Assembly: GCA_964609585.1 (NCBI GenBank)
Contig: CAZSRA010000001.1
Span: forward strand, 45,816 to 109,815
Direction: 5' to 3'
DNA: 64,000 nt
DNA from: an uncultured Candidatus Saccharimonadales bacterium
Lineage (GTDB): Bacteria > Patescibacteriota > Saccharimonadia > UBA4664
The position numbers and the translations under genes were made by a program. The notes under the pieces are model-generated. The model did not search any database. It was not told the origin of the DNA and saw only the letters and a program-made list of their open reading frames with translations. Below, piece after piece: positions 1 through 37,039 of the stretch (its first letter is position 1; every line of letters starts with the position of its first letter).

Positions 1-2
1 AA

Positions 3-17072: not shown

Positions 17073-17100
17073 AGTTCCTCGAACCAATTGATGATTGTAG

Positions 17101-18019: not shown

Positions 18020-18023
18020 CGCG

Positions 18024-18048
18024 TTTATAATGCTTATGTTAGGCTGAC
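18024..18048 (+). promoter_or_regulatory. Conserved promoter-like motif with a plus-strand TATAAT (18026-18031) upstream of P2.
   Basis: About 20 of 29 nt are identical to the motif at 17101-17129. Confidence 0.35.
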
Positions 18049-18103
18049 TGTAGTTATTGCGTAGATGGCTGTAAAAGCGTAAGGGTAAAGGAAAACTGAG
18101 ACA

Positions 18104-19234: not shown

Positions 19235-19247
19235 CCACTCGTCTTTC

Positions 19248-19281
19248 AAATACACGCACTTGGAATGGTGCGTGTATTTTT
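19248..19281 (+). terminator. Rho-independent terminator after P2.
   Basis: Stem aaatacacgcac pairs with gtgcgtgtattt across loop ttggaatg and is followed by a T-tract. The RBS aggagag lies before ATG 19297. Confidence 0.65.
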
Positions 19282-19296
19282 AATCAGGAGAGAGAT

Positions 19297-21057: not shown

Positions 21058-21148
21058 ACGCTCGTTTTGAGTATGAGGTTCGTTGACTGTTCTCACCTAG
21101 GCGCGTAGTATAAGCTTAAGCAATTTATATGAGCTTGTTTTGTAGATT

Positions 21149-22261
21149 ATGAAAATAAAAAACCTGCTTGCTAGAAGTCTGATTGTAATGATTGCGGTGG
21201 CGCTTGTGCCTGCATTTGTGAGCGAGGCAGCGCAGCCCACAAACCGGGTGTTGGCACTAGGAAGTTCGGCTACTAGTGCGGTTACGACATACGCGTTTAG
21301 TTTTAAACCTGCAACGACCGGGAATATTGGGGCGATAAAATTTGAGGTTTGCGACTCGCCACTTGAGGCTTTTGGTTGTGTGAATACGGGCGACTCAAAT
21401 GGTGTTAGTTTTACTTCCAGTGGCGCGAGTATCCAAAGTCAATCAGGTATTTCGGGTTTTACGGCTGGTACGGGGACACCGCCCGCTCCTACTACAAATA
21501 CGTTTTGGATTACAAATGGCACACCGCAGAATATAAATTCGAGTACGACAGTAACGGTAACATTTCAAAATGTGCGGAACCCTTCAGCTGCAAATAAGGA
21601 GTTTTATGGCCGGATGACGACTTATTCGGATTCGGCAGGAACTGCTGAGGTAGATTTTGGGGCAGTCGCAGTGGATACGGTGAGTCAAATTACGGTAACG
21701 GGTAATATGCCCGAGAGCCTGGTGTTTTGTGTGGGGACGAGTGGGACGGACTGCACGAATCTCACAGGAACGGCCGTAACGCTCGGGACGTTTTCGCCGG
21801 TGAGTACAAATGTGGGCACGAGTTTGATGAGTGCGAGTACAAATGCTGGTTTTGGATATGCGATTACGCTCGTGGGAACGACGCTCACGAGTGGGTCGAA
21901 TACGATTCCGGCTATGGGGACGCAGTCGCTGAACTCGACTGGCTGTGCAGTGAGCTGTACGTCGGCTACGGGGACGAGCCAGTTTGGTTCGAATGTGCGG
22001 GCGAATAATGTGGCGTCTGCCGGTGGAGTCTTTGGGGCGGACGTGACGCCAACGGGGGCTGGTTTTAACGGTGTAGGAGCGGGCGGGTACAATACGGCAA
22101 ATTCGTTTCGGTTTTTTAATGGTGATACGGTGGCGAATTCGGGTGGAACAACGTCTAAGGCACAGTTATTTACCAATTCGTATCTGGTGAATGTAGGTGG
22201 GGATCAGGCCGCGGGAGTGTATACAGCTACGATGACTTATATCTGTACGGCGACGTTCTAA
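21149..22261 (+). CDS. Secreted beta-rich protein, paralog P3 (370 aa).
   Basis: Signal MKIKNLLARSLIVMIAVALVPAFVSEAA. Shared motifs are 'SQFGSNVRANNV' and the C-terminus 'AGVYTATMTYICTATF'. Confidence 0.7.
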   Translation: MKIKNLLARSLIVMIAVALVPAFVSEAAQPTNRVLALGSSATSAVTTYAFSFKPATTGNIGAIKFEVCDSPLEAFGCVNTGDSNGVSFTSSGASIQSQSGISGFTAGTGTPPAPTTNTFWITNGTPQNINSSTTVTVTFQNVRNPSAANKEFYGRMTTYSDSAGTAEVDFGAVAVDTVSQITVTGNMPESLVFCVGTSGTDCTNLTGTAVTLGTFSPVSTNVGTSLMSASTNAGFGYAITLVGTTLTSGSNTIPAMGTQSLNSTGCAVSCTSATGTSQFGSNVRANNVASAGGVFGADVTPTGAGFNGVGAGGYNTANSFRFFNGDTVANSGGTTSKAQLFTNSYLVNVGGDQAAGVYTATMTYICTATF

Positions 22262-23406
22262 TGAAGACTTTGCGCAGCGTATTGCGGCGTCACAATCTCC
22301 GCTTCGCATTCGGGGTACGTCTGAGTACTCCTCATTTGCGATGCTCATTGTTCCTTGCACTCCATCTGCGCAAAGCCTTCATTAATGCAGCTACATTGCG
22401 GCGCTCACTGGCTTGGATGCTGGTGTGGGCGCTGGGGCTAGTGCCGTTTACGGCATCGGCGGCGGGTTTGTCGCCGCGCAACATTGCGGTGGGATCGAGT
22501 GCGCAAGGGGTGACGACGAGCTATACGGCGAATTTCACGACAGCAACGACGGCCAATATTGGCTCGATTAAGTTTGCTTTTTGTGATAGTGCCACGGGTA
22601 CGTGCAATGTGCCGGCGGGGGTGGTGACGACATCGGCGACGCTATCGGCGCAGTCGGGAGCGGTCGGGTTTTCGATGGTGAATGCGACGAACGGCGCACC
22701 TTACATTACGCGCGGGGCGGCGAATTTGAATAGCGGCACGGCGGTGAGTTATACGCTGGGCTCGATTACGAACCCAGCAGCGACCAATACCAGCTACTAT
22801 GTGCGGATTACGACATATACGGGGTCGGACGGAGCTACCGGGGCGACTGATACGGGTACGGTGGCGCTCAGCACAGCTCAGCCGGTGCAGCTTACCGGGG
22901 TGACGCCGGAGATTTTGGTATTTTGTGCTGGTACGTCGATTACGAGTGACTGCACGACGGTATCGGGTAATACGATTGATTTTGGGGACTTTTCGCCGGT
23001 AGGGACGCGTAGTGGTACGAGCGTAATGCAGGCGCAGACGAATGCAGCGAACGGTTACTCGATAACGGTGAACGGTACCACGCTGTCGTCGGGCATCAAT
23101 ACGATTCCGGCGCTGGCGTCGCAGACGGCGAGTGCTCTGGGGGTGGGTCAATTTGGGCTGAATGTACGGGCTAATACGGTGCCGGCGGTGGGGGCGGATC
23201 CAACGGGCAGCGGGAGTGGGACGTTTTCGGCGAACTATGGCACAGCCAACCTATACCGATTTGTGAGTGGGGATAGTGTGGCCCAGGCAGCGGCGCCAAC
23301 GAACGCAAATACGTTTACTTCGAGTTATATTGTAAATATTGGTGGAGCGCAGGCAGCGGGCGTGTATACGGCGACAATGACGTATATTTGTACAGCTAGT
23401 TTTTAG
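22261..23406 (+). CDS. Secreted beta-rich protein, paralog P4. It is the closest paralog of P3. The true start is probably TTG 22396 or ATG 22420, which gives a normal signal peptide.
   Basis: ATG 22261 overlaps the P3 stop (TAATG), but it would add a 45-aa Arg-rich N-extension. The region 'RRSLAWMLVWALGLVPFTASAAG' aligns to the P3 signal peptide. The C-terminus is 'AGVYTATMTYICTASF'. Confidence 0.6.
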   Translation: MKTLRSVLRRHNLRFAFGVRLSTPHLRCSLFLALHLRKAFINAATLRRSLAWMLVWALGLVPFTASAAGLSPRNIAVGSSAQGVTTSYTANFTTATTANIGSIKFAFCDSATGTCNVPAGVVTTSATLSAQSGAVGFSMVNATNGAPYITRGAANLNSGTAVSYTLGSITNPAATNTSYYVRITTYTGSDGATGATDTGTVALSTAQPVQLTGVTPEILVFCAGTSITSDCTTVSGNTIDFGDFSPVGTRSGTSVMQAQTNAANGYSITVNGTTLSSGINTIPALASQTASALGVGQFGLNVRANTVPAVGADPTGSGSGTFSANYGTANLYRFVSGDSVAQAAAPTNANTFTSSYIVNIGGAQAAGVYTATMTYICTASF

Positions 23407-23451
23407 CTTCAGGGTTGCACATGATCTGGGCTTTGGGATACACTTCAGGTA

Positions 23452-24432
23452 ATGCTTAAGAAGTTTGTGAGTGGTGTTATGTTGGCGGGGAGTGCAGTTG
23501 TGGCACTCTCATCTTGGGCGGTGGCTGCGACGCCACCGACAGGTGCGTCTACGGGTTCGCCGGGGCAGGGACTTGAGATTTCGCCGCCGGTGATTGAGCT
23601 GTCGGCTGATCCGGGTCAAACGGTAACGGCTAGCATTCGTGTTCGCAATGTGACTCAGGGCGAGCTGATCGCGAAGGGTAAGGCCGATGACTTTGGCGCC
23701 AGTACGGATGAGACGGGTCAGCCGAGGCTGCTCCTCGATGAGACGGGTGAGACCCGGTTTTCTTTGAAATATTGGGTACAGGGTGTGCCGGATTTGCGGC
23801 TCGCACCACAAGAGTTGAAAACGAACGTCGTTAAGATTGTGGTCCCGGCAAATGCGGAACCGGGCGGACATTTTGGGGTGATCCGGTTTACCGCGGTACC
23901 GCCAGATTTAAATGGTACGGGTGTGGCGTTGTCGGCTAGTGTTGGGGCGCTTGTGCTCCTGAAGGTAAGCGGGACCATTACTGAAAAGGTGAGCTTGGCG
24001 GAGTTTTCAGCCCTTCAGGGTGGAAAGAAAAGCGGCTTTTTTGAGCATGGGCCGATAGACTTTTTGGTGCGGGTGCGAAATGAGGGGAGTGTGCACGAGA
24101 AGGCTCAGGGCAGCATTTCGGTGACCAATTGGCAAGGTAAGCAGATTGCATCGATACCGGTGAATGCAAAGGGTGGGAATGTATTGCCGGATAGTATTCG
24201 GCGATTTGAGCAGAGTTTGAGCGAAAAGCAACTATTCGGGCATTATTCCGCTAAATTAGCTTTGAATTATGGTGGTGGCAAGCTGCTAAGTGCATCGCTT
24301 GGGTTTTGGGTGATTCCGTGGAAGCTTATCCTGCTGGTTTTGCTCGGAATTATCGTAGTAGGCTATCTGCTTAGAATTGGCCTACGTAAGTACAATGAGC
24401 ATATTATTGCGCAAGCAAGACGTCGCCGCTAA
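23452..24432 (+). CDS. Cell-surface protein (326 aa) with an N-terminal signal peptide and a C-terminal TM anchor plus basic tail. It is DUF916/DUF3324-like (CscA-like).
   Basis: Signal MLKKFVSGVMLAGSAVVALSSWAVAA. 'ISPPVIELSADPGQTVTASIRVRNVTQGEL' fits the DUF916-type pattern (..PGQ.qtl.v.v.N.s..). The C-terminal 'WKLILLVLLGIIVVGYLLRIGLRKYNEHIIAQARRRR' is a TM helix followed by a charged tail. Confidence 0.45.
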   Translation: MLKKFVSGVMLAGSAVVALSSWAVAATPPTGASTGSPGQGLEISPPVIELSADPGQTVTASIRVRNVTQGELIAKGKADDFGASTDETGQPRLLLDETGETRFSLKYWVQGVPDLRLAPQELKTNVVKIVVPANAEPGGHFGVIRFTAVPPDLNGTGVALSASVGALVLLKVSGTITEKVSLAEFSALQGGKKSGFFEHGPIDFLVRVRNEGSVHEKAQGSISVTNWQGKQIASIPVNAKGGNVLPDSIRRFEQSLSEKQLFGHYSAKLALNYGGGKLLSASLGFWVIPWKLILLVLLGIIVVGYLLRIGLRKYNEHIIAQARRRR

Positions 24433-24456
24433 GCCGCTTGTGCTAAACTGTGAAGC

Positions 24457-25413
24457 ATGAAAGCTGGTTTATTACAGCTCGTAGCGCACGAGCATAGTGG
24501 CAAAATGCGGCCGCATGCTCACACTTCGTATGCGAGCCTTGTGTTTTTGTTGATCTTGAGCGGTATAGTGCTGCTGGCCTCAAGTCTGGCTGTGCAGGCG
24601 GCACCACCGGCGGTAAATCCGCAGAGCGGCTCGGTGGGTCTATCTGGAACCGTGCCGGGACCGCCGCCTACGACGTCGGCGGTGATTTTGAGCCCGCAGT
24701 CGGGTTCGCATGTTTCGAGTAGCCCGGTGACGGTGTCTGGGACGTGTCCGTTGCATACGTTTGTGAGCGTAGAAAACAATCAGGTATTCGCGGGCGTAAC
24801 GAGTTGTGGGGCGAATGGGACATTTTCGCTATCTATAGATTTGTTTGCTGGAGCGAATGTACTTGTGGCTAGGGTGTCGGATGCGCTTGGGCAATTTGGG
24901 CCGGATTCGGCCGCGGTAACTGTATTTTATGATGTGTCTAGTCCGAGTTTGGCTGGTGGTTTGGCGGGGAAGCCGTTGTTTTTGCAGTCGACTTCGATGG
25001 TGCTCGGCACAAGTCCTGCTCAGATTCTGGTGCGGAGCGTGACGATCGTTGGGGGTGTGGGGCCGTACGCCGTTAGTTTTGATTGGGGAGATGGCAAGAG
25101 TGATCTTGTGAGTACAGAGGCCGAGGGTGCAGTGGAGGGTCGTCATGCGTATAGCCAGCCGGGCAATTATCAGGTGATTGTAAGGGCGACAGACGCTCGG
25201 GGCAACAATGCCTTACTTGAGCTTGTGACGGTGGTGAATGGGCCAATCGCCGCATACGGCGCAAATAACGATACAGGACTGGGTGCAATGCCCGGGGTAC
25301 TCTTGACGGCTTGGCCTTTGTACACTTTGGCTTTTTTTATGGTTGGGTTTTTTTGGCTCGGTGAGCGGCACGAAAATCGCAAATCGCGACGCAATCAGTT
25401 GCATTTGCAATAG
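24457..25413 (+). CDS. Membrane-anchored protein with Ig-like domains, a PKD domain and a C-terminal TM helix.
   Basis: PKD signature 'VSFDWGDGKSDL...GRHAYSQPGNYQVIVRATDARGN'. The N-terminal hydrophobic segment is SLVFLLILSGIVLLASSLA. The C-terminal helix is LLTAWPLYTLAFFMVGFFWL. Confidence 0.7.
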   Translation: MKAGLLQLVAHEHSGKMRPHAHTSYASLVFLLILSGIVLLASSLAVQAAPPAVNPQSGSVGLSGTVPGPPPTTSAVILSPQSGSHVSSSPVTVSGTCPLHTFVSVENNQVFAGVTSCGANGTFSLSIDLFAGANVLVARVSDALGQFGPDSAAVTVFYDVSSPSLAGGLAGKPLFLQSTSMVLGTSPAQILVRSVTIVGGVGPYAVSFDWGDGKSDLVSTEAEGAVEGRHAYSQPGNYQVIVRATDARGNNALLELVTVVNGPIAAYGANNDTGLGAMPGVLLTAWPLYTLAFFMVGFFWLGERHENRKSRRNQLHLQ

Positions 25414-25460: not shown

Positions 25461-25489
25461 TTGTGCTTGAGCTCAAGAAGGCCTATAAT
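25461..25489 (+). promoter_or_regulatory. Sigma70-like promoter for the 2452-aa giant gene.
   Basis: -35 ttgtgc (25461-25466), a 17-nt spacer, -10 tataat (25484-25489). The RBS agagg lies 6 nt before ATG 25521. Confidence 0.5.
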
Positions 25490-25520
25490 TTGTACGTTAG
25501 TTATAGTTTGCTAGAGGTAC

Positions 25521-28500
25521 ATGATTTTCAAGCTTATCAAAAAGCATTTGAGTAATCTGATAAATCCTCGTACTGCTCTGGCCTTTATTGGGCTTGGGCT
25601 TGTTTCGGTTGGAATTGCGGGACTTAATGCGCAATCGGCTCAGGCCGTGGGTGCCGCTGGAATCAATCAGACTATCAACTACCAAGGCCGGCTCCTCAAT
25701 GCGGCTGGGGCCGTGATTGCTGATGGTACTTACAACATGGAATTTAAAATCTACCAAGATGGTGATGGTTGTGTGTCTGGTGGTACCTCGCCGTGTAGCG
25801 GTACTTTGAAGTGGACGGAAGATTGGATCAATAGCGGTACGGACAAACGGGTGGTCGTGAAGAATGGTTACTTTTCGGTAAACCTGGGGAGTGTTACCGC
25901 TTTCGGTGGTTCGGTGAACTGGAACTGGGACACTTTGTGGCTAACTCAGACGGTGGCTTCGGGGAATCCTACTGGGAGCTGTACGCCTTTCTCGACTTGC
26001 AATAGTGGTAACGAGCCGGAAATGCTGCCGATGAAGCGGTTGTCGAGTGCGGTGTACGCCTTGAATTCGCAGCAACTTGGAGGACTGACGGCGGGGCAAT
26101 ACGTACAGCTAGCGCAGGGAGTGCAAGCAGATTCGAGCACGACTAACCCATCAATTTTTATCAATAAGACGGGTGCGACGGCCAACATTTTGGAGCTGCA
26201 AAAGGCAGGGGGAGATGTGTTGACGGTGAATAATGCTGGTGCGACTACTTTGCAAAATAGTACCGACTCGGCAACGGGCTTCTTGGTGAAGTCGGCCTCT
26301 GGTTCGCTGAATGCGTCGGTGTTTGATGTAGACACTTTGAACCAGCGCATCGGGGTCAACACGAATGCTCCGAGTGATACATTCCAGATTAATCAAGGGA
26401 CGACGGCGCTGCCGGGGACAGTATCGAACAGCGCTAGTTCGCCGAATGTGACGGGCTCTGCTACGACATTTACCACGAGCTTTTTGGTAGGGGATACGTT
26501 TACCGTTACTTCTACGACTAATACTTGTACGATTTTAAGCATTACCGACAATACTCATTTGGTTTGTACGGGAAATTTGAGCACGCTTTCGTCGAACTCG
26601 GCTTACACGATGGGTAACATTGGGCGGATTGGTGTTTTGGCCAATGGCTCTTTGGGCGTGGGGACGACGAGTCCGACGCAATCCTTGCAGGTGACGGATG
26701 CGGGTGGAAATACGGCATTTTCGGTAGACACGCGCAACCTCCGGGTGGGCATTGGGACGGCAAACCCAACGAACCGATTTACGGTAAATGGTGGCAATAG
26801 CTTATTTACCAATACTTCGACTACGAGTACGACGCCAACGTTGTCGGTAACCACTACGGCGACTCCGACGACGGGTAATACGATTACGAGCTTGTCGAAC
26901 ACCCTTACGAACACGCCGACGAGTGTGGCTAACACGGCAATTGGGCAGGCTGTGACGGTGACAGATGCGACGACGCTTGCGAACACGCTCCAAGGTTTCA
27001 GCTTGGTCGTGAGCGACACCGGGACTGGGGCGAAAGTGGTGCGGGGACTGAGCGTGGATACCACTGGTACGACGAACGGGTCGGCCGCGGTGACGACGGC
27101 ATTGTTTAAGGCGGCCACTTCAACTACGGCTTTCCAGGTGCAAAATACTAGTTCGCAGGCGATTTTGGCTGTGGACACTTCGGCTAATGTAGTGGCGATT
27201 GGCGGCACCCAGCCGACGGTACAAAGTGCTTCGGGTAATTTGACGGTACTGGCCCAGGGCACTAATCAGTTGTCGCTTGATACGGGTAGTACTGGAACAG
27301 TGGTGGTGGGTAGCAGCAATGCGGCAACGGTAACGATTGGTAATTCGAACACGGCAACGAATGTGACCGGGATTTTGGGTGGTGCGGGGGCGAGCGGCGG
27401 TGGGATTAATATTGGTGGTGGGACCAATGCCCAGACTGTCAATATTGGTAGTACGGTGGCGGCAACAGCGGTCAATATTCAGGGTGGTTCGACTGGCGGT
27501 ATTAACATTGGTACTTCGGGTAGTCCGACGATCACGATTGGTAACTCGGCCACGACAACCAAGATGGGCGGACGCGTCGGTGTCGGCACTGCGGCTCCGA
27601 CGGAGCAGCTGGACGTTGAAGGCCAACTTCCCTCTGCGACTATAGGTAGCGCCTTTACAACCGGAAATCCCGCCTACGATGTAGCTACCGAAGGGCAGTA
27701 CGCCTACACTGCTTCTTACGGTAAGTTTGATACTTGGGACGTTACTCGCCCAAGCGCACCGGTCAAGTTGGGAACTCTCTCCATCTCTACCGGCATCGTT
27801 TATGTGAAGGTTAGTGGTAAATATGCCTTCGTAGTAAATGGCACAACCAGTCAGCTCTACATCATAAACATTAGTAATCCTGCTAGCCCGTCACTGACTG
27901 CTACAGTTGGCACCTCAGTAACTGTGGGTACCCTAACCCAGTTAAATACGGTGGCGATACAGGGCCGTTATATGTACCTCGGCGCATCTACGGTTAGCAA
28001 TAATTACGTTCTTGTCTATGACATTAGCAATCCAGCAACTCCGCAGTATGTGGCGAACGTTATCGAAACACAAGGCGTAGACTCCATAGCGATCCAAGGT
28101 ACTTACCTTTATGCCACGATTGCTGCCACCGGTTTGCAGATAGTTGATATCTCCAATCCCGCAGCGCCTGTCAACAAGGGGTCTCTTTCTTCCTCCTCAA
28201 CTAATACCGTTATCGTACAAGGCCGGTACGCCTACTTGTCTCTCGGTACTACTTTGCAGGCGGTCAACGTATCTGATCCAACCGCTCCCGTGAGCGCGGG
28301 GACCGTCACGCTTGATAGCTCAGAATCAAATATGGTTATGCAGGGAAAATACATATATGTAGCTATCAGCACCTCGCATGAGCTTCAGGTAGTTAACGTT
28401 TCGAACCCGGCTTCAATGAGCATCACGGGAACTATCGCCACCGGAACCGAAGTCCGATCCGTCGCCCTAGCCGGCAACTACGCTTATGTATCCGACTATA

Positions 28501-31500
28501 CCAACGGCAAAATCCTCGTGTACGACATGGGGGGTGCTTATATACAGCAATTGCAAGCTGGAGGTATAGCCGCCACAACGCTCGATGTCAGCAACAGCCT
28601 ACAGGTGGAGGGCGCCGCAAGCTTTTCGAATGGCCTGCGTGTAAATCAAGGATTTAGCGCAGATGGAAATAGCAGCGTTCAGGGTAGTTTCCAGGTACAA
28701 AATGCGAGCGGTACAACAGTACTCAATGCCGACGCGACTCAGGGTACGCTCACGACTAACGGGGGCAGCTTAACTATAAACGGTATAGCGAATCCCGCTG
28801 CGCCCACACTTACTAGCAGTAGTACGGGCGGATCGCTGGCTGCTAATACCTACTTCTATAGGCTCGATGCGGTAGGTACGGGTGGCAGTGGGACAACCGC
28901 GGGAATTCCATCTAGCCCTGGGTCAGTCACGACCTCTGGAAGTGCTAGCCAAAACACGTTGTCATGGACTGCGGTACCTAATGCCACTGCCTATGACGTT
29001 TACCGCTCGATCGATGGCGGAAATACTTGGTTTTATAACCAATTCAGTAGCGCTACAACCTCTATTATCGACAATGGCAGCACCTATACATGGGCTACGA
29101 GTGGTTCTTTCTCCAATTTCAGCAATGCTGGTGGTATAAACTTACAAAAAAGTACGGGAATTACCTTCGACGCGGGTTCTGGGGGGACGTATCAGATGGA
29201 AATATTTGATAACGTTAACGGCGGCAATACCCTGACGATGGGCAACTATAACGCTGGTGGGAGTGTAGACATACAGGGTCAGAATTTTTACCTAACTGAT
29301 ACTAGCACGTATAACCACGACTTTAGCATGACAAATACGGGTGCAATCACTCTCAAAAACAGTGTGAATTCATCGGCGGCGTTTCAGGTGCAGAACTCGA
29401 GCGGAGCGAGTTTGCTGGGGGTAAATACGTTGACGAGCAATTTGAATTTGGTTGCTAATCCGTCGTTTGAAGTGACGACGAATGGGTGGAGCCTGCGTGG
29501 GGCAGCGACGGTCACTTATGACGATGCGGCTGGTAACGCACTCTACGGCGGCTCGACGCTTAAAATGGTGAATACGGCTTCGGGTGATGGGGCGAAGTAT
29601 TCATATCCTTTACTGCCGTCGCAACAATATTCGCTGAGTATGTGGGCCAAGGCGTCGGTAGCGACGACGATGATCCTGGGTCGGCAAGAAAATGGGTCCG
29701 ATGTGGAGACGGGTTGTGTGGCGGCTAGTGTAACCACGAGCTGGACTCAGGTGACTTGTACGTTTACGACGGGTGCAACGATTAACACGGCGAGCAATAT
29801 TTACATTCGCCAGACGGTGGCGGGAACTCCGACCGTGTATCTGGACGGGGTAATGCTTGTGACTGGCGCGACGGTCCAATCGTATGTGGCTCCGTCCAAT
29901 AACTTACAGGTGGATGCTGGGTCGAGCAATCTGACCCTAAACAACGCGAATACGGGTGAGCTCCAATCATGGCGGCAAACTAATGCCATGGGGACGGGCC
30001 GGCGGTACGCCAGCACCGTAACTGCTAATGGTTACATCTATTATATTGGTGGCTGTACCGGAGCTTGTAGTGCTGGGCTTGGCGTTACCACGGTGGACTA
30101 TGCCAAGATTAACGCGGATGGATCGGTGGGGACTACGACATGGTCTACCACAACGGCTTTGCCGCAAGCACGTTATGGTCACACGGCGTTTACCCTTAAC
30201 GGGTATCTTTATGTCGTAGGTGGAGATAATGCTACAGGAGCTCTAAATGCCGCGCCCCAAACCACGGTGTATTATAGTCGGCTAAACCAGACTGATGGTA
30301 CTTTGGGCAGTTGGCAGACATCGGCGAACTCCCTGCTGGCAGCGAGAGAGTTTCATACGTCAGTTACTGCTAACGGCTATGCTTACGTGATTGGTGGCGA
30401 CAATGCTGGGGCGCAGTCTACGGCATACTATGCAAAGCTGTACTCCGATGGTTCAACCGCGGCGTGGGCTACTACAACACCTCTAAGCACCGGCGCTGCC
30501 GTTCGCCGGGAGGCGGATTCGGTGGTAGCGAATGGCTACGTGTATGTGATAGGTGGCGATAGTGCCGGAACGGCGCAGTCGACCGTGTATTACAACAGCT
30601 TAAACGCCGACGGTACATTGGGTGCTTCTTGGGCTAGTACAACGGCATTGCCACAGATACGGCGCTACGAGACGACTGTTACGGCAAATGGCTATATTTA
30701 TGCGATTGGCGGTGATAACGGTAGTGGTGTTGCTACCAACACTGTTTATTATGCGGCAATTACGGCGGGTGGTCTGATTGGCTCATGGTTTACGAACGGA
30801 ACAACCTTGCCGGCTGCACGGTGGGGGCAGTCGACTATGCTTGCTAACGGGTATGTCTATGCTTTGAGCGGTTATGACGGCTCTAATCCTCAGCCAACCG
30901 TTTATTATGCTAGTACTTCACGAGTGATGCTTGGTGGTTCTTTGGATCTTGTGGGTCTTAATTCGCAGACCTTGACGGACCCGGGCGGGGCGGGATCGAT
31001 TGTTGCTGGTAATATTCGAGCCGTGGGTGCGCTTCAAGTGGAGGGATTTGCTGACTTTAATACGGGTCTGGCGGTGGCCAGTGGCCTCACTATCAATACG
31101 GTGGGCTCAAGTGCTGGGCAAACGATTCTTAATGCCAACGATTCAAGCGGCAACAGTATTTTTGGGCTTAAATATCTAGCAGGGAATTTCGGTGCTTTCG
31201 CGTCCGCGGGTGCGTTTGTGAGCAAGAACAACTATTGGGGCGAGGAGTTTAACGTTACCCAGACGAACGTCTGTAGCCGCACGACCACAACGAATGGCTG
31301 GAAGGCGCGTGGTGACTTTGGAAGTAATGGTGGTACGGCCTGTACTCCAGGTGACGGCGAACTCGCCTTTAGTTCCGTTTTGGGAGTAGCAGCTAGTGGT
31401 AATACGAGCGCGGCTTGTACTTCTAACTCGGGGGCCTGTGGTGGTAGCTTGCCAGCGGCAAACTACGGGCTTGAGCGAATATCGGCGGTGTCTACGATTA

Positions 31501-32879
31501 CTGCCTCAAACACGGCGGCTAGCCTTGAATATATCGCTACCAATGCAGCTGGAGGTACGGCTTCGGGACTAACGGCGGCAAATAACTTGCCGGTGTTTAC
31601 GGCTAAGGTGAAGCCAAGTTTAACCGCTTCGGGTAGCAATGCTCGGTTCTTTGTGGGCCTGGGAGATAAGGGTGTAGCTAGCGGACTATTTCCGAATAAC
31701 GGGGTATTTTTCAGCAACTGTACGGCCACTGCTGTACCAGCGTGTGCCGGTACGAACTGGATAGGTGTGGTAACAAGCGCATCGGCGGTGGTGGGGACGG
31801 TGACGTGCAATGTTGGACTGGATAACTCCAATAACATCAATACAGTGAGTTTTAACTATCTTCGGATTGAGGTCCGGTCCAATACTGATTATCATTTCTT
31901 CGTTGATACGGACACATCTAACGGCGTGAACGAAAAAGAGTGTGGCTCTGGTATATCGGGCACTGGCCCGGGTGCTACTGGTTTATCGCCAATGCTTGAG
32001 ACTGCTTTTATGACCGCAACGGCAACGACTGAAAACATGGACGTAGACTTCGTGCGCATTTGGCAGGACGACCCGCCGGCAGGTGGCCAGCAGGCAGAAG
32101 TCCTGCAGCAAAGTGGTGGCGGCGAAGCGCCGCTTGTGCCCGATGTAGCGCCCGGCGATCGATCTGGTTGGGCGAATTCGCCGTTGGTAGACTTTACGGC
32201 GGCCACGAATGAGGACACGATTTTTGACCATGACGTGTATGTGAAGGGGACATTGTATGCCGACAAGATTAAGGCTAACCAAATAGAGGGATTGGACGTT
32301 TTGACTAATAGCGTGGACAGTTTGCAGGCGAAATTGGCTGCAAGTGGGCAGCCTGCTGGTCCGGCTTTGCCTAGTGCGCCCTTGGCAAGTCCCGGTGTGA
32401 ATTTGAATGGACTGAAGATTGACAATGGCTCAGTGTCGGCCGACATGAATGTGAAGGGAGGTTTGACGGTCGGGGGAGCGGCTGACTTCCAGGGCAGCGC
32501 ATTCTTCCGCGGACTGGTGACGTTTGTTCAGAAAACGGTCTTTAACAATGATGTGAGTTTCGAAGGTCGGCCGACATTTAATAGTGACACGGCTGGATAC
32601 GCGACGATTTACCCCACTCAGCAAGAGGTGAGTGTGAAATTTGACCGGCCATACGATCAGACGCCGGTCGTGGTGGTGTCGCTCAAGAATGGATTGTTTG
32701 AGCAGTTTTCGTACAAAGATGCGACTACAACGGGCTTTACGATTGTCTTGCCGAAGGCAGCGACCGAGGAACTAGACTTTTCATGGTATGCCGTGAGCGT
32801 GAAAGATGCGAAAACAACGGCTTTACCAACGCCAAGTCCGTCGGTGAGTCCGAGGCCGAGCCCGGCTTTGTCGCCGTAA
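25521..32879 (+). CDS. Giant mosaic surface protein (2452 aa). Order: N-terminal anchor/signal, conserved N-domain, T/S/N-rich beta repeats, LVIVD repeats, FN3, CBM4_9-like domain, six Kelch repeats, ConA-like domain, C-terminal H-type-lectin-like domain.
   Basis: The N-domain 'INYQGRLLNAAGAVIADGTYNMEFKIY...SCTPFSTC...MLPMKRLSSAVYALNSQQLGGL' is shared with the 987-aa protein. LVIVD-type repeats lie at nt ~27640-28530 (e.g. GQYAYTASYGKFDTWDV, GKILVYDMGG). The CBM4_9 pattern lies at nt ~29445-29860 (NPSFE..NGW...YSLSMWAKAS...VYLDGVMLV). Kelch repeats lie at nt ~30000-30880 (ANGYIYYIGG, LNGYLYVVGGDNATG...). The C-terminal 'FDRPYDQTPVVVVSLKNGLFEQFSYKDATTTGFTIVLPKAATEELDFSWYAVS' matches the H-type lectin pattern, as in the discoidin C-terminus. 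Confidence 0.8.
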   Translation: MIFKLIKKHLSNLINPRTALAFIGLGLVSVGIAGLNAQSAQAVGAAGINQTINYQGRLLNAAGAVIADGTYNMEFKIYQDGDGCVSGGTSPCSGTLKWTEDWINSGTDKRVVVKNGYFSVNLGSVTAFGGSVNWNWDTLWLTQTVASGNPTGSCTPFSTCNSGNEPEMLPMKRLSSAVYALNSQQLGGLTAGQYVQLAQGVQADSSTTNPSIFINKTGATANILELQKAGGDVLTVNNAGATTLQNSTDSATGFLVKSASGSLNASVFDVDTLNQRIGVNTNAPSDTFQINQGTTALPGTVSNSASSPNVTGSATTFTTSFLVGDTFTVTSTTNTCTILSITDNTHLVCTGNLSTLSSNSAYTMGNIGRIGVLANGSLGVGTTSPTQSLQVTDAGGNTAFSVDTRNLRVGIGTANPTNRFTVNGGNSLFTNTSTTSTTPTLSVTTTATPTTGNTITSLSNTLTNTPTSVANTAIGQAVTVTDATTLANTLQGFSLVVSDTGTGAKVVRGLSVDTTGTTNGSAAVTTALFKAATSTTAFQVQNTSSQAILAVDTSANVVAIGGTQPTVQSASGNLTVLAQGTNQLSLDTGSTGTVVVGSSNAATVTIGNSNTATNVTGILGGAGASGGGINIGGGTNAQTVNIGSTVAATAVNIQGGSTGGINIGTSGSPTITIGNSATTTKMGGRVGVGTAAPTEQLDVEGQLPSATIGSAFTTGNPAYDVATEGQYAYTASYGKFDTWDVTRPSAPVKLGTLSISTGIVYVKVSGKYAFVVNGTTSQLYIINISNPASPSLTATVGTSVTVGTLTQLNTVAIQGRYMYLGASTVSNNYVLVYDISNPATPQYVANVIETQGVDSIAIQGTYLYATIAATGLQIVDISNPAAPVNKGSLSSSSTNTVIVQGRYAYLSLGTTLQAVNVSDPTAPVSAGTVTLDSSESNMVMQGKYIYVAISTSHELQVVNVSNPASMSITGTIATGTEVRSVALAGNYAYVSDYTNGKILVYDMGGAYIQQLQAGGIAATTLDVSNSLQVEGAASFSNGLRVNQGFSADGNSSVQGSFQVQNASGTTVLNADATQGTLTTNGGSLTINGIANPAAPTLTSSSTGGSLAANTYFYRLDAVGTGGSGTTAGIPSSPGSVTTSGSASQNTLSWTAVPNATAYDVYRSIDGGNTWFYNQFSSATTSIIDNGSTYTWATSGSFSNFSNAGGINLQKSTGITFDAGSGGTYQMEIFDNVNGGNTLTMGNYNAGGSVDIQGQNFYLTDTSTYNHDFSMTNTGAITLKNSVNSSAAFQVQNSSGASLLGVNTLTSNLNLVANPSFEVTTNGWSLRGAATVTYDDAAGNALYGGSTLKMVNTASGDGAKYSYPLLPSQQYSLSMWAKASVATTMILGRQENGSDVETGCVAASVTTSWTQVTCTFTTGATINTASNIYIRQTVAGTPTVYLDGVMLVTGATVQSYVAPSNNLQVDAGSSNLTLNNANTGELQSWRQTNAMGTGRRYASTVTANGYIYYIGGCTGACSAGLGVTTVDYAKINADGSVGTTTWSTTTALPQARYGHTAFTLNGYLYVVGGDNATGALNAAPQTTVYYSRLNQTDGTLGSWQTSANSLLAAREFHTSVTANGYAYVIGGDNAGAQSTAYYAKLYSDGSTAAWATTTPLSTGAAVRREADSVVANGYVYVIGGDSAGTAQSTVYYNSLNADGTLGASWASTTALPQIRRYETTVTANGYIYAIGGDNGSGVATNTVYYAAITAGGLIGSWFTNGTTLPAARWGQSTMLANGYVYALSGYDGSNPQPTVYYASTSRVMLGGSLDLVGLNSQTLTDPGGAGSIVAGNIRAVGALQVEGFADFNTGLAVASGLTINTVGSSAGQTILNANDSSGNSIFGLKYLAGNFGAFASAGAFVSKNNYWGEEFNVTQTNVCSRTTTTNGWKARGDFGSNGGTACTPGDGELAFSSVLGVAASGNTSAACTSNSGACGGSLPAANYGLERISAVSTITASNTAASLEYIATNAAGGTASGLTAANNLPVFTAKVKPSLTASGSNARFFVGLGDKGVASGLFPNNGVFFSNCTATAVPACAGTNWIGVVTSASAVVGTVTCNVGLDNSNNINTVSFNYLRIEVRSNTDYHFFVDTDTSNGVNEKECGSGISGTGPGATGLSPMLETAFMTATATTENMDVDFVRIWQDDPPAGGQQAEVLQQSGGGEAPLVPDVAPGDRSGWANSPLVDFTAATNEDTIFDHDVYVKGTLYADKIKANQIEGLDVLTNSVDSLQAKLAASGQPAGPALPSAPLASPGVNLNGLKIDNGSVSADMNVKGGLTVGGAADFQGSAFFRGLVTFVQKTVFNNDVSFEGRPTFNSDTAGYATIYPTQQEVSVKFDRPYDQTPVVVVSLKNGLFEQFSYKDATTTGFTIVLPKAATEELDFSWYAVSVKDAKTTALPTPSPSVSPRPSPALSP

Positions 32880-32902: not shown

Positions 32903-32929
32903 AAAAGGAGCCTGAAATGGGCTCCTTTT
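32903..32929. terminator. Bidirectional rho-independent terminator between convergent genes.
   Basis: Stem aaaaggagcc, loop tgaaat, stem gggctcctttt. It has A-tracts 5' and T-tracts 3'. Confidence 0.7.
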
Positions 32930-32957: not shown

Positions 32958-34073
32958 TTAAGGCACTAAATGGCCGGTGCAGGTGTTGCCATTATTGTTG
33001 CTATTGGTGCCGTCTGGACAGGTCGTGTTTGACCAGGTTGGATTTGAGAGAGTGCCGGTACCAAGGTTTTGGGCACCGGTAAGGTTTGAGCCGGTGAAAT
33101 TTGGATTGGTTAAGTTAGTGTTGGTAAAACCAGTGGCATTGCCGATACTTGGGTTTATTGACAGGTCTGTTCCGGTAAAATTGGCGCCTGTAAAACTTGA
33201 ATTGCTCAGATCGGCGCCGCGCAAATCGGCGTTGGTAAAATTGGGATTTGTTCCGGTTGAGCCGGTAATGCGAACGCGGCTCGGGAGGTCACCGAAGGAG
33301 GTGCCAATGAATTTGGTGTTCGTGATATTTGAGGAGTCGAAGGTGAGCATGGTGCCGTTTAGGGCTTTGGCCGAGGTGAGGTCGGCTCCGGTGAGATTGG
33401 TATTGGAGAAGGAGGCTGCGTTGCCGAAGTCGACATTGCTAAAAATTACACCCGATAGATCGGAGTTAGCGAAGTTAATCGAGGTGAGCTGATTGGCGGT
33501 GAGATTTCGGTTGGCTAGTCCGCTAACGTTGGTGAGGGATGTGCCGGTGAAATCAATGCCGCTAAGGCTGGTTGCTCCGAGTGCGATGGTGTTGAGGGTG
33601 GTGCCGTTGAGATTTGAGTTCGTAAGATTTGTGCTTGAGAAATCTTCGTGATCTAAAGCGGCATTGGTGAGGTCGACTCCAGATACATTGGCATTTGTGA
33701 GATCGGTGTGAGAGAGCCTGGTGCTTGTGAGCGAAGCATTGGATAAATCAGCGCTCCGGAAGTCTCGGTAGCGCAAATCCATGCCGTCGAGCGCAGCCCC
33801 GGCTAGATTGGTTATGAATTGGCCGGGGGCGGCGGAATTCCAAGACAGTGCGGTTTCGCCGCTATTGCAGGTTTGGCTTGGACTATCGATGATGCGAACT
33901 TTGCCGAGCAAGCCCGTGCTATTACAGGCGTGAATGACGCCGCCGGTATCTGGAATGGAGGCAAGTACCGTAGCGGATCCAACGAGCGTGAGCGTTATGC
34001 CTGCGGCAACTCCGGTAAAGAATTTGGGCTGTTGCCTAACGGTACGGACTAGCATGCGGAGTAAGTTGCGCAT
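32958..34073 (-). CDS. Secreted pentapeptide-repeat protein (371 aa).
   Basis: Signal peptide MRNLLRMLVRTVRQQPKFFTGVAAGITLTLVGSATVLA. There are ~50 consecutive A(D/N)LxX pentapeptides (e.g. ADLSNASLTSTRLSHTDLTNANVSGVDLTNAAL). Cys pairs flank them at both ends. Confidence 0.8.
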   Translation of the reverse strand: MRNLLRMLVRTVRQQPKFFTGVAAGITLTLVGSATVLASIPDTGGVIHACNSTGLLGKVRIIDSPSQTCNSGETALSWNSAAPGQFITNLAGAALDGMDLRYRDFRSADLSNASLTSTRLSHTDLTNANVSGVDLTNAALDHEDFSSTNLTNSNLNGTTLNTIALGATSLSGIDFTGTSLTNVSGLANRNLTANQLTSINFANSDLSGVIFSNVDFGNAASFSNTNLTGADLTSAKALNGTMLTFDSSNITNTKFIGTSFGDLPSRVRITGSTGTNPNFTNADLRGADLSNSSFTGANFTGTDLSINPSIGNATGFTNTNLTNPNFTGSNLTGAQNLGTGTLSNPTWSNTTCPDGTNSNNNGNTCTGHLVP

Positions 34074-34735: not shown

Positions 34736-37039
34736 ATGCTTATCCGGCTAAAAAAGTTGGTAGCTTTGTGGGCGGTTATCGTTATTGTGGCCGTGGGTTT
34801 GCCTGCTCCGGCGGCCAGAGCGAGTTTGTCGAGCTGTACGGCCGATACGAGTCCGCGTGAGATGGCGCCCAATGCGACGATTGATGTTTCGTTTACGGTT
34901 CAAAATACCGATGTGAATCCTATCCGGTGGATGCGGGTGGTGGTGCCTTCGAGCGATTTTACTATCGTTAGTACGACGATTAGTGGCTGGAATGATGCGA
35001 CCTCGGGTGGATCGACTTCTACCTTTTTAACGGGTGGAACACTTAATCCTGGGGACACGCTTAATTTTACGATTTCGACCCAGGCAGCAAATACCAATGA
35101 TTCACCGGCAAACTGGGTGTATTATGCGTCGGATGATGCGGGTGGTAATAACTCTATTAACTGTACGGGCACGCAAGATTTGGCCATTGTGGGCGATGTT
35201 GTGCAGCCACTGGCGGTATCAAATGTGCAGCTTTCGGGGCTGACGGCGACCTCGGTACTTGTGACCTGGGATACGAATGCACCAGCGACTTCGCAGGTAG
35301 ACTATGGGCTAGACGAGACCTATGGTACGACGAAGGGTCCGGACGCCGGCTTGGTGACGCAGCATAGAATGACGCTTTCAGGGCTGACGGCGAACACGGG
35401 CTATCATTATATGGTAACAAGTACGCGACCGTCAGATTCGAGCACGTCTAGTTCGCCGGATGGGACTTTTTTGACGGCAGCGATTGTGCCGCCGGTGATT
35501 GTACAGGTGCCGGTGGCGGGTGGCGGCGGGAGTAGTGGTGGGCTAACGGGTGCAAATGTGCCGGGGGCAGTGGTGCAGACTACCCCGACCGAGAGTGTGC
35601 CTCCGACGGTAAGTCTTACGACCGATATGACGAGGCCGTTTAAGGTGGTGCCGAAACTTGCCGGAGTGGCGGCTGATAATGTGGCGGTGGCGCGGGTGGA
35701 TTATTCGACCGATGGGGGAAAGAATTGGTTGCCGGTTGATAGTGTGGTGCAGGCTACGACGACTACAACAACTGGTACCGGCAAAAAGAAAAAGTCGGTG
35801 ACGACGACCAGCCCAGCGAATGTGAGTTTTTCGTTTACGCCGGTGATTTTGGATGATGGCAATTATACCGTAATGGCGCGCGCGACGGATTCGAGCGGGA
35901 ACGTGTCGGTGACACCGGGCGCGGTACTGGTGCTCGATCAATTGCCGCCGCGATTTGGGACGAGCGTGGTGACGATTGGGCCACAAATGATTGAGCCGGG
36001 CGCAGATGGCAAACTGATAGTGCCGGCTGGGCTCGATTATAAGATGACAGTGAGTTTGGTGGGCGGTCCGACCAAGGTAACGGTTCACGCTCAGGTGGGG
36101 ACGGAGATGGGTCATAGTTTTAGCTTGACTCCATCATCGGAGCCAGGATTATGGGTGGGGATCTTGAGTTTTAGTGCTGCGGGGACCTACCAGCTTACGG
36201 GTGAGGCCGTGGATGGGGCGGGGAATACGGGCACGCGGATGCTGGCGACGGTAACAGCTGTACCGGCACTAAAGATTACTGGGGGCGCTGGCGCTTTAAA
36301 AGGGACGAAGGCTACGTTGTACAACTTTAGTGCCGAGTCGCATGCGTGGCAGGTGTGGGACGCGGCAGCATATGGCCAGCATAACCCACAGAATTTGAAT
36401 TCGCAGGGGGCTTTGAGCCTGCTGGTTCCTTCCGGCGAGTATTATTTGAAGCTAGAGTCGGCGGGGGGACCAGATACGCTGACGCGCAGTTTTACCGTGG
36501 ACACGCCGACGCCGCTCACGGGAGCGATTGCGCTTTCGAATAGCGCGGGTTTTAAGCTTGGGCCGTTGTCGGTATTTTGGCCCTGGACGACACTGGCTGC
36601 TCCGCCAGTGAAGGCGAGTAGTGCCGCGAGTGGGCTTGTAGAAAACGCGCGGTTGCCGCTGGTGAAGTTGCCAACCACGGATGGGCAGTTGATATCGCCG
36701 GTGGATTGGTACGGCAAGCCAACGGTACTGGCGGCGGTAGCCACTTGGGCGCCGACAACGGCCGAGCAATTGCCGGCACTGGCAAAGCTTTCGGCTAATA
36801 GTGATGTGAATGTGGTGATACTGGCCGAACAGCAGCGGGCAGAGACGGTGGCGGCCTATTTGCAGGTAGCGGACAGTACGCTTTCGGCGGTATGTGATCC
36901 GGACGGTTTGCTTAGTGGTACTTTGACTACGCCGGGTGTTCCGGCGCTGTATTTCATTGACCGGCACGGTATAATTAAAAAGGTTATGGTTGGGACGAGG
37001 TCGGCTGAAGAGATTTTGGCTGAGCTTAGTTTGCTTTAA
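34736..37039 (+). CDS. Secreted multi-domain protein (767 aa), paralog of 11529..13838. Order: Ig-like, FN3, Ig-like, Cna-B-like, Cys-less TlpA-like C-terminus.
   Basis: It has the same architecture as the first copy. The C-terminus is 'GKPTVLAAVATWAPTTAEQLPALAKL...ALYFIDRHGIIKKVMVGTRSAEEILAELSLL'. The 'ATWAPTTAEQLPALA' stretch is identical to the paralog. The FN3-like motif is 'TSQVDYGLDETYGTT...GYHYMV'. Confidence 0.75.
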   Translation: MLIRLKKLVALWAVIVIVAVGLPAPAARASLSSCTADTSPREMAPNATIDVSFTVQNTDVNPIRWMRVVVPSSDFTIVSTTISGWNDATSGGSTSTFLTGGTLNPGDTLNFTISTQAANTNDSPANWVYYASDDAGGNNSINCTGTQDLAIVGDVVQPLAVSNVQLSGLTATSVLVTWDTNAPATSQVDYGLDETYGTTKGPDAGLVTQHRMTLSGLTANTGYHYMVTSTRPSDSSTSSSPDGTFLTAAIVPPVIVQVPVAGGGGSSGGLTGANVPGAVVQTTPTESVPPTVSLTTDMTRPFKVVPKLAGVAADNVAVARVDYSTDGGKNWLPVDSVVQATTTTTTGTGKKKKSVTTTSPANVSFSFTPVILDDGNYTVMARATDSSGNVSVTPGAVLVLDQLPPRFGTSVVTIGPQMIEPGADGKLIVPAGLDYKMTVSLVGGPTKVTVHAQVGTEMGHSFSLTPSSEPGLWVGILSFSAAGTYQLTGEAVDGAGNTGTRMLATVTAVPALKITGGAGALKGTKATLYNFSAESHAWQVWDAAAYGQHNPQNLNSQGALSLLVPSGEYYLKLESAGGPDTLTRSFTVDTPTPLTGAIALSNSAGFKLGPLSVFWPWTTLAAPPVKASSAASGLVENARLPLVKLPTTDGQLISPVDWYGKPTVLAAVATWAPTTAEQLPALAKLSANSDVNVVILAEQQRAETVAAYLQVADSTLSAVCDPDGLLSGTLTTPGVPALYFIDRHGIIKKVMVGTRSAEEILAELSLL

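Follow-up and report, generated by a model that had tools for sequence, protein, structure and literature searches.

The closest described counterparts of the locus treated here are the Pam pili, which were reported from M. amalyticus as donor-strand-exchange pili with membrane-anchored chaperones, with PamT assigned to the tip and PamR acting as a membrane tether, and which have been described as analogous to the Pap and Fim pili (bioRxiv 10.64898/2026.03.03.709456). The same preprint, by Troman et al. (June 2026), notes a 'tail fibre-like protein' that is consistently co-localised with pam operons, and compares PamR to RbmA, a linker of cells to exopolysaccharide. Here we analyse a gene that directly follows a pam operon in an uncultured Candidatus Saccharimonadales bacterium, within a stretch of 64,000 nucleotides (positions 45,816 to 109,815 of contig CAZSRA010000001.1, assembly GCA_964609585.1) that we refer to as the window and in which all coordinates are counted from the first letter. 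Its open reading frame (ORF; 25521..32879, + strand, ATG start, stop codon included) encodes a predicted secreted, modular, fibre-like protein of 2452 residues, hereafter the target, which carries a conserved N-terminal module (the N-module), a series of internal domains and a C-terminal knob. Because the N-module accompanies the pam operon across species of Saccharibacteria and the distal set of lectin-type and propeller domains is shuffled between relatives, the N-module family is a candidate for the host-binding element of the Pam pilus, and would be of interest as a host-attachment or host-specificity element for host-range variation in epibionts of the candidate phyla radiation (CPR). The protein named in the preprint resembles the target in adjoining the pam operon in Saccharimonadia, in being fibre-like and in having a C-terminal fold of tail-fibre type, but no accession, domain analysis or function is given for it.

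Several other known systems share part of this design. FimH and PapG are, like the target, lectin-type binding proteins encoded in donor-strand-exchange pilus operons, but they are two-domain proteins of ~300 residues with a pilin domain that accepts a donor strand, whereas the target has 2452 residues and no detectable pilin domain. Phage tailspikes and R-pyocin fibres (7eea, 6cl6 (PA0620) and Sf6) have the same fold as the knob (Foldseek probability 1.0, root-mean-square deviation 2.5-3.2 Å over ~70 columns) and the same arrangement of a conserved N-terminal attachment part and a variable distal binding part; they show no sequence-level relationship to the target, however, which differs from them in its Sec signal, its pilus-operon context and its much larger internal globular domains. 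In P. acnes phages, an H-type-lectin-domain protein, gp17, is encoded beside tail genes and has been proposed to be a carbohydrate-binding tail protein (PMC3094311). The H-type lectins HPA, HAA, SLL-2 and discoidin II are built on the same six-stranded beta-sandwich as the knob, and in discoidin II it is likewise C-terminal in a multidomain protein, but they have ~100 residues against ~68 in the knob, which is without two contact loops of HPA and in which Arg63 is replaced. The giant adhesins Marinomonas MpIBP, Salmonella SiiE and Apilactobacillus Giant1-5 are also very large, secreted and multidomain, and carry their ligand-binding modules towards the distal end; they are made of long repeated Ig-like arrays, use type I secretion for export or a sortase anchor and have no link to a pilus operon, whereas the target has each globular domain once, on low-complexity beta-rich connectors. 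Within Saccharibacteria, S. epibionticum has essential envelope proteins with glycan-binding domains, for which targeting of host glycans has been speculated (PMC10633639). Three of these proteins of Southlakia epibionticum, SEML1_0890, 0891 and 0315, are extracytoplasmic with lectin- or FN3-type domains and a proposed role in host-glycan targeting, as we propose for the target; from their description they stand apart from it, with differing sets of VCBS, dockerin and FN3 domains and no reported Pam link. The individual domains of the target are ordinary, and large modular lectin-type surface proteins are to be expected in CPR genomes. In the literature on tail-fibre-like or giant adhesins of Saccharibacteria we found nothing specific to the N-module family, and what is new as far as the literature shows is the family itself, its quantitative linkage to pam, the cassette-like exchange of its distal parts and the presence of the knob also on a flanking membrane protein.

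The pam operon of the window (17201..25413, + strand) was recognised through the NCBIfam families NF058579, NF058581 and NF058578. It contains, all on the + strand, pamT (17201..18019; 224 bits, just below the equivalog cut-off of 240), three pilin genes (18104..19234, 21149..22261 and 22261..23406) with pilin C-domain matches above the cut-off of 55, a gene for a PamC/D-like chaperone candidate with a signal peptide and a C-terminal transmembrane helix (23452..24432), and pamR (24457..25413; 292.6 bits, just below the equivalog cut-off of 300). Pfam recognises no Pam family anywhere in the operon, and in PamR it finds only the generic Glucodextran_B and PKD families. The ATG of the target lies 108 nucleotides 3' of the end of pamR on the same strand, with 234 nucleotides from pamR to the start of the mature N-module, and the 108-nucleotide gap showed no site resembling a terminator.

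This arrangement is widespread. N-module relatives are encoded by 421 metagenome stretches, 80 of which were fetched with 10-kb flanks, and 77 of these loci had at least 1.2 kb upstream. A pamR gene on the same strand, ending 200-990 nucleotides before the mature N-module, is present in 66 of the 77 (86%), and the conserved order is orf16152 (a small knob gene, on the − strand), pamT, pilins, chaperone candidate, pamR and N-module gene. Four of the 11 exceptional loci have pamT and orf16152 6-8 kb upstream, in an inverted arrangement. As a replicate, 80 of the 326 stretches that encode N-module relatives in GTDB species representatives were inspected, almost all of them named Saccharibacteria or Saccharimonadales, and the 3' part of pamR was found within the 1-kb upstream flank in 60. 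Between the first two pilin genes of the window lies a gene for a secreted Vgb_lyase-family propeller with an FN3-like tail (19297..21057, + strand, E 1e-102), which we regard as an accessory insertion in this genome since relatives occur in just two of the 80 metagenome loci (L087 and L124).

The N-terminal end of the target begins with a Sec signal peptide (residues 1-42; 25521..25646, + strand) that has a basic n-region, an 18-residue hydrophobic core and an AQA↓V site. An AxA↓(A/T)TGIN cleavage site is kept across 33 aligned relatives, and cleavage of the target would be expected at AQA↓V. Together with the 18 cysteines of the protein, which fall into nine closely spaced pairs, the signal peptide and its conserved AxA site support an extracellular location. 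The N-module itself (residues 43-215; 25647..26165, + strand) has two cysteine pairs and starts with the mature N-terminus GINxxINYQGRLL; its N-terminal strand is GINQTINYQGRLL in the target, and the consensus of the relatives is AxA↓ATGINxQINFQGRLL. It is present in 117 of the 120 best homologs of the target, to which the module counts below also refer, and 19 columns of its alignment (A2) are invariant. The named homologs come from Candidatus Saccharibacteria, Saccharimonadales or Patescibacteria metagenome-assembled genomes, which points to a Saccharibacteria-type CPR bacterium as the source of the window, and nearly all the GTDB stretches mentioned above are named Saccharibacteria. The N-module has no Pfam, NCBIfam or PHROG match, NCBIfam gives no match on the whole target, and comparison of the N-module profile with the PDB returned only the Cna B-domain 1d2p, at an E-value of 0.13 that is too weak for use. 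We considered whether the N-module might be a cryptic pilin domain of Pam type and dropped this, at the level of sequence, given hhalign probabilities below 1%; the target is also without any NCBIfam Pam match, and against orf16152, too, hhalign found no similarity to the N-module.

The N-module is followed by a region rich in Thr, Ser, Asn, Gly and Ala (residues 216-700; 26166..27620, + strand), in which these five residues make up 56-69%. It has no family match by Pfam or by segment scan, and contains four [VIL]G[VI][GN]TxxP motifs, starting at residues 285, 386, 417 and 694; we read it as a probable beta-helical fibre. Self-BLAST of the target detected no internal repeats at E<0.01. The window encodes a second N-module protein, of 987 residues (38910..41873, + strand), which is 49% identical to the target over residues 1-247 and 31% over residues 1-679. 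The C-terminal part of this second protein is unlike that of the target, and is possibly a jelly roll.

Downstream of the fibre region the target carries five globular domains. An LVIVD beta-propeller (residues ~701-1010; 27621..28550, + strand) is matched by Pfam PF08309 in six stretches (E 9.6e-32, 108.5 bits), and the region has seven G-x-Y-[AMLI]-[YF] blade motifs, spaced 41-49 residues apart. It is followed by an FN3-like region (residues ~1101-1200; 28821..29120, + strand), in which Pfam fn3 was not detected even segment by segment; it was recognised by comparing a 13-sequence profile (A4, residues 1075-1230) with the PDB, where the best match was the solved Fn3-like protein 3mpc (E 2.7e-5) and further matches were 5g56, FN3con, titin and the FN3 domain of chitinase A1 (1k85). 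Aligned with solved FN3 domains, residues 1075-1230 (~28743..29210) have the motif of strands F-G, TYxYxxxAV, ahead of strands A-E, an odd order that points to two half-domains, a circular permutation or a swap of strands. The next domain belongs to CBM_4_9 (PF02018; residues 1309-1424; 29445..29792, + strand), with 45.8 bits and an E-value of 1e-11 on the isolated residues 1295-1460 (cut-off 25.9); against the PDB the segment matched 8xmz (E 3.5e-4) and the 2zew group, from an S-layer-associated multidomain endoglucanase (1.2e-3), over the full domain. In the whole-protein Pfam scan CBM_4_9, FN3 and ConA were all without a match, which for CBM_4_9 looks like an effect of scanning inside a long, compositionally biased protein and not like the absence of the domain. 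A six-bladed Kelch beta-propeller (residues ~1481-1801; 29961..30923, + strand) is matched by Pfam Kelch_1 (PF01344, 49.6 bits), PF24681 and PF13964, has six ANGYxYxxGG motifs, and matches six-bladed Kelch designs and KLHL12 in the PDB with E-values down to 2e-13.

The last of the internal domains, a ConA-like or L-type-lectin-like jelly roll with eight cysteines (residues ~1905-2181; 31233..32063, + strand), was recognised from its AlphaFold2 model only. This model (mbb174f9198ca; residues 1880-2200, 16 relatives) has a predicted local distance difference test score (pLDDT) of 70 and a predicted template modelling score of 0.79, and a Foldseek search of the PDB gave 188 matches at E<1e-3, led by VIP36 (2dur, 6.8e-7) and including SO2946, ERGIC-53, Emp46/47p, legume lectins, a botulinum toxin binding domain and the phage J-1 Dit CBM2 among the leading neighbours, all of which are ConA-like jelly rolls and mostly L-type lectins or cargo receptors. 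There was no Pfam match at E<=10 for residues 1795-2160 and none when a 16-sequence profile was compared with PDB sequences, so that the jelly roll is predicted at the level of fold, and membership by sequence of a curated family such as Lectin_legB, Lectin_leg-like, Laminin_G or GH16 was not found. A word-indexed homolog search with residues 1860-2165 came back blank, despite the presence of an identical protein among the entries searched.

The chain ends in a neck, a stalk and the knob. The neck (residues 2245-2275, LYADKIKANQIEGLDVLTNSVDSLQAKLAAS; 32253..32345, + strand) has a heptad pattern that is kept in relatives, with the motif ADKIKANQIEGLE conserved in the 42 homologs that have the C-terminal block in common, and from its heptad spacing, read by eye, it may form a coiled coil that brings about trimerisation. 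A beta-rich stalk (residues 2296-2357; 32406..32591, + strand), which showed no regular secondary structure when modelled as a monomer with AlphaFold2, is kept along with the knob, and neck (ADKIKANQIEGL...) and stalk come before the knob in all relatives that share it. The last ~120 residues are common to 42 of the 120 homologs and always form the extreme C-terminus.

The knob (residues 2358-2425; 32592..32795, + strand) is predicted to be a six-stranded beta-sandwich with the H-type-lectin fold. Its match to Pfam H_lectin (PF09458) is borderline, at 26.5 bits (E 6.9e-6) on the isolated residues 2330-2452 and 21.7 bits in the whole protein, against a cut-off of 24; H_lectin is also matched at E<=0.01 by 22 of the 34 relatives in the knob alignment A1. 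A profile of A1 gave 12 matches in the PDB, five of them to H-lectin sequences including HPA, HAA and discoidin II, with marginal E-values. The AlphaFold2 model of the knob has a pLDDT of 91.7 and six strands, and its nearest structural neighbours in a Foldseek search of the PDB include the receptor-binding domain of the cyanophage Pam1 tailspike (7eea) and the R2 pyocin fibre (6cl6), followed by tailspike C-terminal domains from phi297, Sf6 and the K1-lyase. SLL-2 (3wmp), HPA (2ce6, 2ccv and 2cgy), HAA (4q56) and discoidin II are among its top 16 matches, with E-values of 1e-2 to 8e-2 and a probability of 1.0; target-normalised template modelling scores (TM) are 0.5-0.55 for SLL-2, HPA and HAA, and 0.21 for discoidin II, which has 256 residues. 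Among the viral structures of BFVD many tail fibres and proteins named as H-type lectin domain were matched. We regard this assignment of fold, made from the model, as sound. The target ends in a Pro/Ser-rich tail (residues 2436-2452; 32826..32876, + strand). Relatives P0091, P0075, P0055, P0107 and P0116 have a Peptidase_S74 domain (endosialidase intramolecular chaperone), which in P0091 and P0075 stands directly before the knob, and which in phage proteins would imply an autocleavage that frees the C-terminal part.

The same knob recurs at the other end of the operon. The A1 profile matches two of the 414 ORFs of the window, the target and orf16152 (E 7e-7), a gene divergent from pamT (16152..17087, − strand) that encodes a small protein of 311 residues with an N-terminal transmembrane helix, a beta-helix-like stalk and a knob. 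Its position and orientation are kept in 31 metagenome loci, and the profile matches all 31 members; Pfam H_lectin gave no direct match on the orf16152 knob, and the family tie comes from the A1 profile. As the transmembrane helix is N-terminal, the knob of orf16152 is necessarily membrane-distal, which fits a distal role for the knob of the target as well. The stalk of orf16152 has a weak Bactofilin match.

Among the 120 homologs LVIVD occurs in 24, CBM in 39, Kelch in 30, the ConA-like domain in 35 and the knob in ~42, and the order of the modules varies. The knob is terminal in only four of 30 complete pam-linked relatives, and the block of CBM, Kelch, ConA, stalk and knob is found in only one of them (L082); the commonest pam-linked form has ~1320 residues and shares only residues 45-290 with the target. 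From these alignments the target is an unusually large member with an extra LVIVD-FN3 block, and the N-module is the sole part that defines the family, everything downstream appearing to be exchanged between members. The original prediction, which a model had made from the letters and their translations, had described a mosaic protein of this kind, and the shuffling of modules among relatives bears it out. It had placed the ORF at 25521-32879, which is exact at both ends, and its list of a conserved N-module, LVIVD repeats, FN3, CBM4_9, six Kelch repeats and an H-type lectin-like C-terminus was recovered throughout, the FN3 by profile and with Pfam negative. The three Pfam scans it had proposed, for PF08309, PF02018 and PF09458, all returned their family (the last two on isolated segments), within a few codons of the nucleotide ranges it had given. 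Its ConA-like domain was upheld at the level of fold and went unmatched by sequence; its count of at least three domains of carbohydrate-binding type in one protein agrees with the three counted here.

We think it moderately likely, at somewhat better than an even chance, that the target is a Sec-secreted, polymorphic fibre that is coupled to the Pam pilus and binds glycans on the surface of a host. Its ORF, signal peptide pattern, domain assignments, operon linkage, modular shuffling and want of an LPXTG or C-terminal transmembrane anchor were obtained directly by computation, and from them the following course can be proposed. Removal of the signal peptide at AQA↓V would expose the conserved N-module on a mature protein of ~2410 residues, and the N-module would then couple the target to the Pam pilus, to its membrane tether PamR, or else to the envelope of the cell. 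The LVIVD, FN3-like, CBM4_9, Kelch and ConA-like domains would be exchangeable cargo on Thr/Ser/Gly-rich connectors, and the coiled-coil neck, beta stalk and H-type-lectin-fold knob would close the chain, all three possibly trimerising. Cargo and knob may bind a polysaccharide or glycoconjugate on a host bacterium and so let the cell attach to a specific host, either once the pilus has made contact or at the same time. Cultivated Saccharibacteria live attached to host bacteria, and since the targeting of host glycans has already been proposed for them, host attachment is a reasonable reading; the fold neighbours of the knob, trimeric lectins and the receptor-binding or tailspike C-termini of phages, also speak for it. 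The glycan-directed attachment of the original prediction is thus reasonable as regards the host, but the sugar binding that it implies is putative, and the canonical HPA site is probably absent. The surface adhesin that it had proposed agrees with the extracellular signals, but it had seen neither the operon nor the family; because the pam operon ends with this gene and only the N-module defines the family, we read the target as a variable component of a pilus-linked system and not as a generic stand-alone adhesin. A more specific proposal, which we make tentatively and think improbable in its entirety, is that Pam pili carry the N-module proteins as interchangeable adhesive cargo. The mature N-terminus or the N-module would plug into a Pam subunit (PamT, PamR or a pilin), one possible way being donor-strand complementation, and the swapped distal modules would set host range; if true, the family would be the cellular equivalent of the host-range cassettes of phage tail fibres. 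In either form the family offers testable targets, namely complexes of the N-module with Pam proteins and glycan binding by the CBM, ConA-like domain and knob.

A number of observations weigh against a glycan-binding fibre on the pilus. A physical association of the target with the pilus is hypothetical, and hhalign gives the N-module a probability below 1% against PamT, pilin, PamR and chaperone candidate (PamT against pilin, as control, 99.8%). In the one organism in which Pam pili have been studied, M. amalyticus, the gene after pamR is pamB and not a giant gene (bioRxiv 10.64898/2026.03.03.709456 supplement), and the 'tail fibre-like protein' of that preprint, although likely to be the N-module family, cannot be equated with it from the text. 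The N-module paralog at 38910..41873 has a Cache-domain gene before it in place of pamR. The target also has no anchor motif that would account for its retention at the cell: its C-terminus (...KTTALPTPSPSVSPRPSPALSP) has no LPXTG, hydrophobic stretch or C-terminal transmembrane helix, and SLH, LysM, CW_binding and LPXTG wall-binding modules were all absent from it in Pfam and NCBIfam. On the side of the glycans, the ConA-like model is only moderately confident, its structural matches having TM of 0.3-0.5. In the knob, residues 25-32 and 54-60 of HPA are insertions relative to the knob family, and Arg63 aligns with a conserved Phe (HMMER alignment); the contacts of HPA with N-acetylgalactosamine (GalNAc) we take to be Gly24, Asp26, Arg63, His84 and Tyr89, of which the C-terminal positions were not alignable to the knob family with this tool. 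Because contact loops are deleted and Arg63 is replaced, the canonical GalNAc site of H-lectins is probably absent from the knob.

These points feed two serious alternatives. One, which we consider rather unlikely, is that the target is a stand-alone fibre of the envelope or matrix, co-located with pam and not attached to the pilus, which would sit in the epibiont's own wall or polysaccharide layer, bind its own polymers through the lectin-type domains or knob, and act as a spacer, a coat or a second-stage adhesin. The dissimilarity of the N-module to the Pam pilin domains and the position of the paralog away from pamR agree with this, as do a possible -10 box of its own upstream of the target, the gene for an LCP-family ligase (45242..46792), which points to a Gram-positive-type wall with glycopolymers, the comparison of PamR to the exopolysaccharide linker RbmA by the preprint authors, and the fact that the commonest pam-linked relatives are without knob and propellers. 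The very highly conserved adjacency to pamR across species, on the other hand, argues for a functional tie beyond co-location, and no recognised wall-binding module is present that would hold such a fibre in the wall. Should the coupling to the pilus prove to be mere co-location, the target would be one more large modular CPR surface protein, of value for annotation and unsurprising. The other alternative leaves the pilus aside and concerns the knob, which might be mainly a trimerisation or folding nucleus in the manner of a tailspike C-terminal domain or foldon, no lectin at all, with ligand binding left to the internal modules; this we find quite possible, though on balance we lean against it. 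The C-terminal domains of tailspikes and pyocin fibres often serve trimer assembly as much as binding, and those of Sf6, phi297 and the K1-lyase are among the top neighbours of the knob; its HPA sugar-contact loops are deleted, a conserved heptad neck and stalk precede it, Peptidase_S74 stands just before it in P0091 and P0075, and most pam-linked relatives dispense with it. Yet the isolated knob passes the Pfam H_lectin cut-off, the receptor-binding domains of the R2 pyocin fibre and cyanophage Pam1 are equally among its top neighbours, and in orf16152 it is the sole globular domain, so that the protein would have no function if the knob were purely structural.

Two further readings of the target were rejected. 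That it is an enzyme for polysaccharide degradation or nutrient harvesting, targeted by its CBM and with the ConA-like domain as a GH16-type glycosidase or lyase, is very unlikely. CBM4_9 modules usually accompany glycoside hydrolases and one is present here, and in the ConA-like fold list a GH16 kappa-carrageenase and a GH43 enzyme appear low down, at ranks 48 and 50; Wang et al. (PMC10633639) also allow that envelope proteins of this sort might be degradative. The top 47 places in that list, however, are taken by non-catalytic proteins, namely lectins, cargo receptors and the binding domains of toxins, no catalytic family was found by Pfam or NCBIfam in any segment of the target, and the GH16 motif ExDxxE or ExDxE does not occur in residues 1880-2200, and it was on the negative motif search and the want of a catalytic family that the enzyme was set aside. 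Scarcely credible, and the least probable of all, is a tail fibre gene of a prophage or tailocin, for which the fold of the knob, the logic of a conserved N-end and variable C-end as in phage tail fibres and the presence of Peptidase_S74 in some relatives might be adduced. Four segments of the target had no match in PHROGs, no relatives of the N-module or of stalk and knob were found in IMG/VR or, by tblastn, in 50,697 GenBank phage genomes, the Sec signal peptide is conserved, and around the target lie genes for pili, sensors and housekeeping functions (parAB, lepB, prfA), none of them encoding a phage structural protein; the lack of phage relatives in these three collections and the cellular context led to its rejection.

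A protein identical to the target is present in NCBI (P0001), encoded on a 369-kb contig. In the gap before its gene, a possible promoter -10 box, TATAAT (25484-25489, + strand), and a Shine-Dalgarno-like AGAGG (25513-25517, + strand, three nucleotides 5' of the ATG) were read by eye. Downstream of the gene, and also read by eye, is a perfect 10-bp hairpin with flanks of four A and four T, AAAAGGAGCC-TGAAATG-GGCTCCTTTT (32903..32929, assigned to no strand), which lies between convergent stop codons and is likely to be a bidirectional intrinsic terminator that closes the transcription unit. A consensus scan for promoters and terminators gave nothing significant, with numbers of sites no higher than in shuffled sequence, and it overlooked the hairpin because the T-run has only four T. 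The convergent gene (32958..34073, − strand) encodes a protein of pentapeptide repeats that has a hydrophobic segment at its N-terminus, and a relative of it lies 3' of the N-module gene in metagenome loci L081 and L083.

Elsewhere the window is ordinary chromosomal DNA, with parA/parB (42480..44176), the gene for signal peptidase I (44405..45166), the LCP-family wall-polymer ligase gene already mentioned, HtrA, prmC and prfA. GC skew is above 0 in all 2-kb bins of the window (0.06 to 0.33), independently of gene orientation, which, with parA/parB present, would be compatible with a position of the window on a single replichore close to the origin. Two other giant genes stand at its start, an ORF of more than 2193 residues (1..6617, + strand) that is open at the window start and has no Pfam match, and a gene for a protein of 1585 residues with several Kelch propellers (6621..11378, + strand), whose tie to the target is through Kelch only. 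A paralogous pair of genes (11529..13838 and 34736..37039, both + strand) encodes secreted proteins in which Big_13/Pur_ac_phosph_N is fused to Redoxin/AhpC-TSA and whose full-length sequences are 37% identical. Each adjoins a gene for a membrane Cache-domain protein (14566..16152, − strand, and 37056..38804, + strand, mutually 36% identical), so that the gene pair is duplicated, and one of the two Cache-domain genes is followed by a response regulator gene (13851..14552). From their domains, the Redoxin-fusion proteins may be extracytoplasmic thiol-disulfide oxidoreductases for the Cys-paired pilins and giant proteins.

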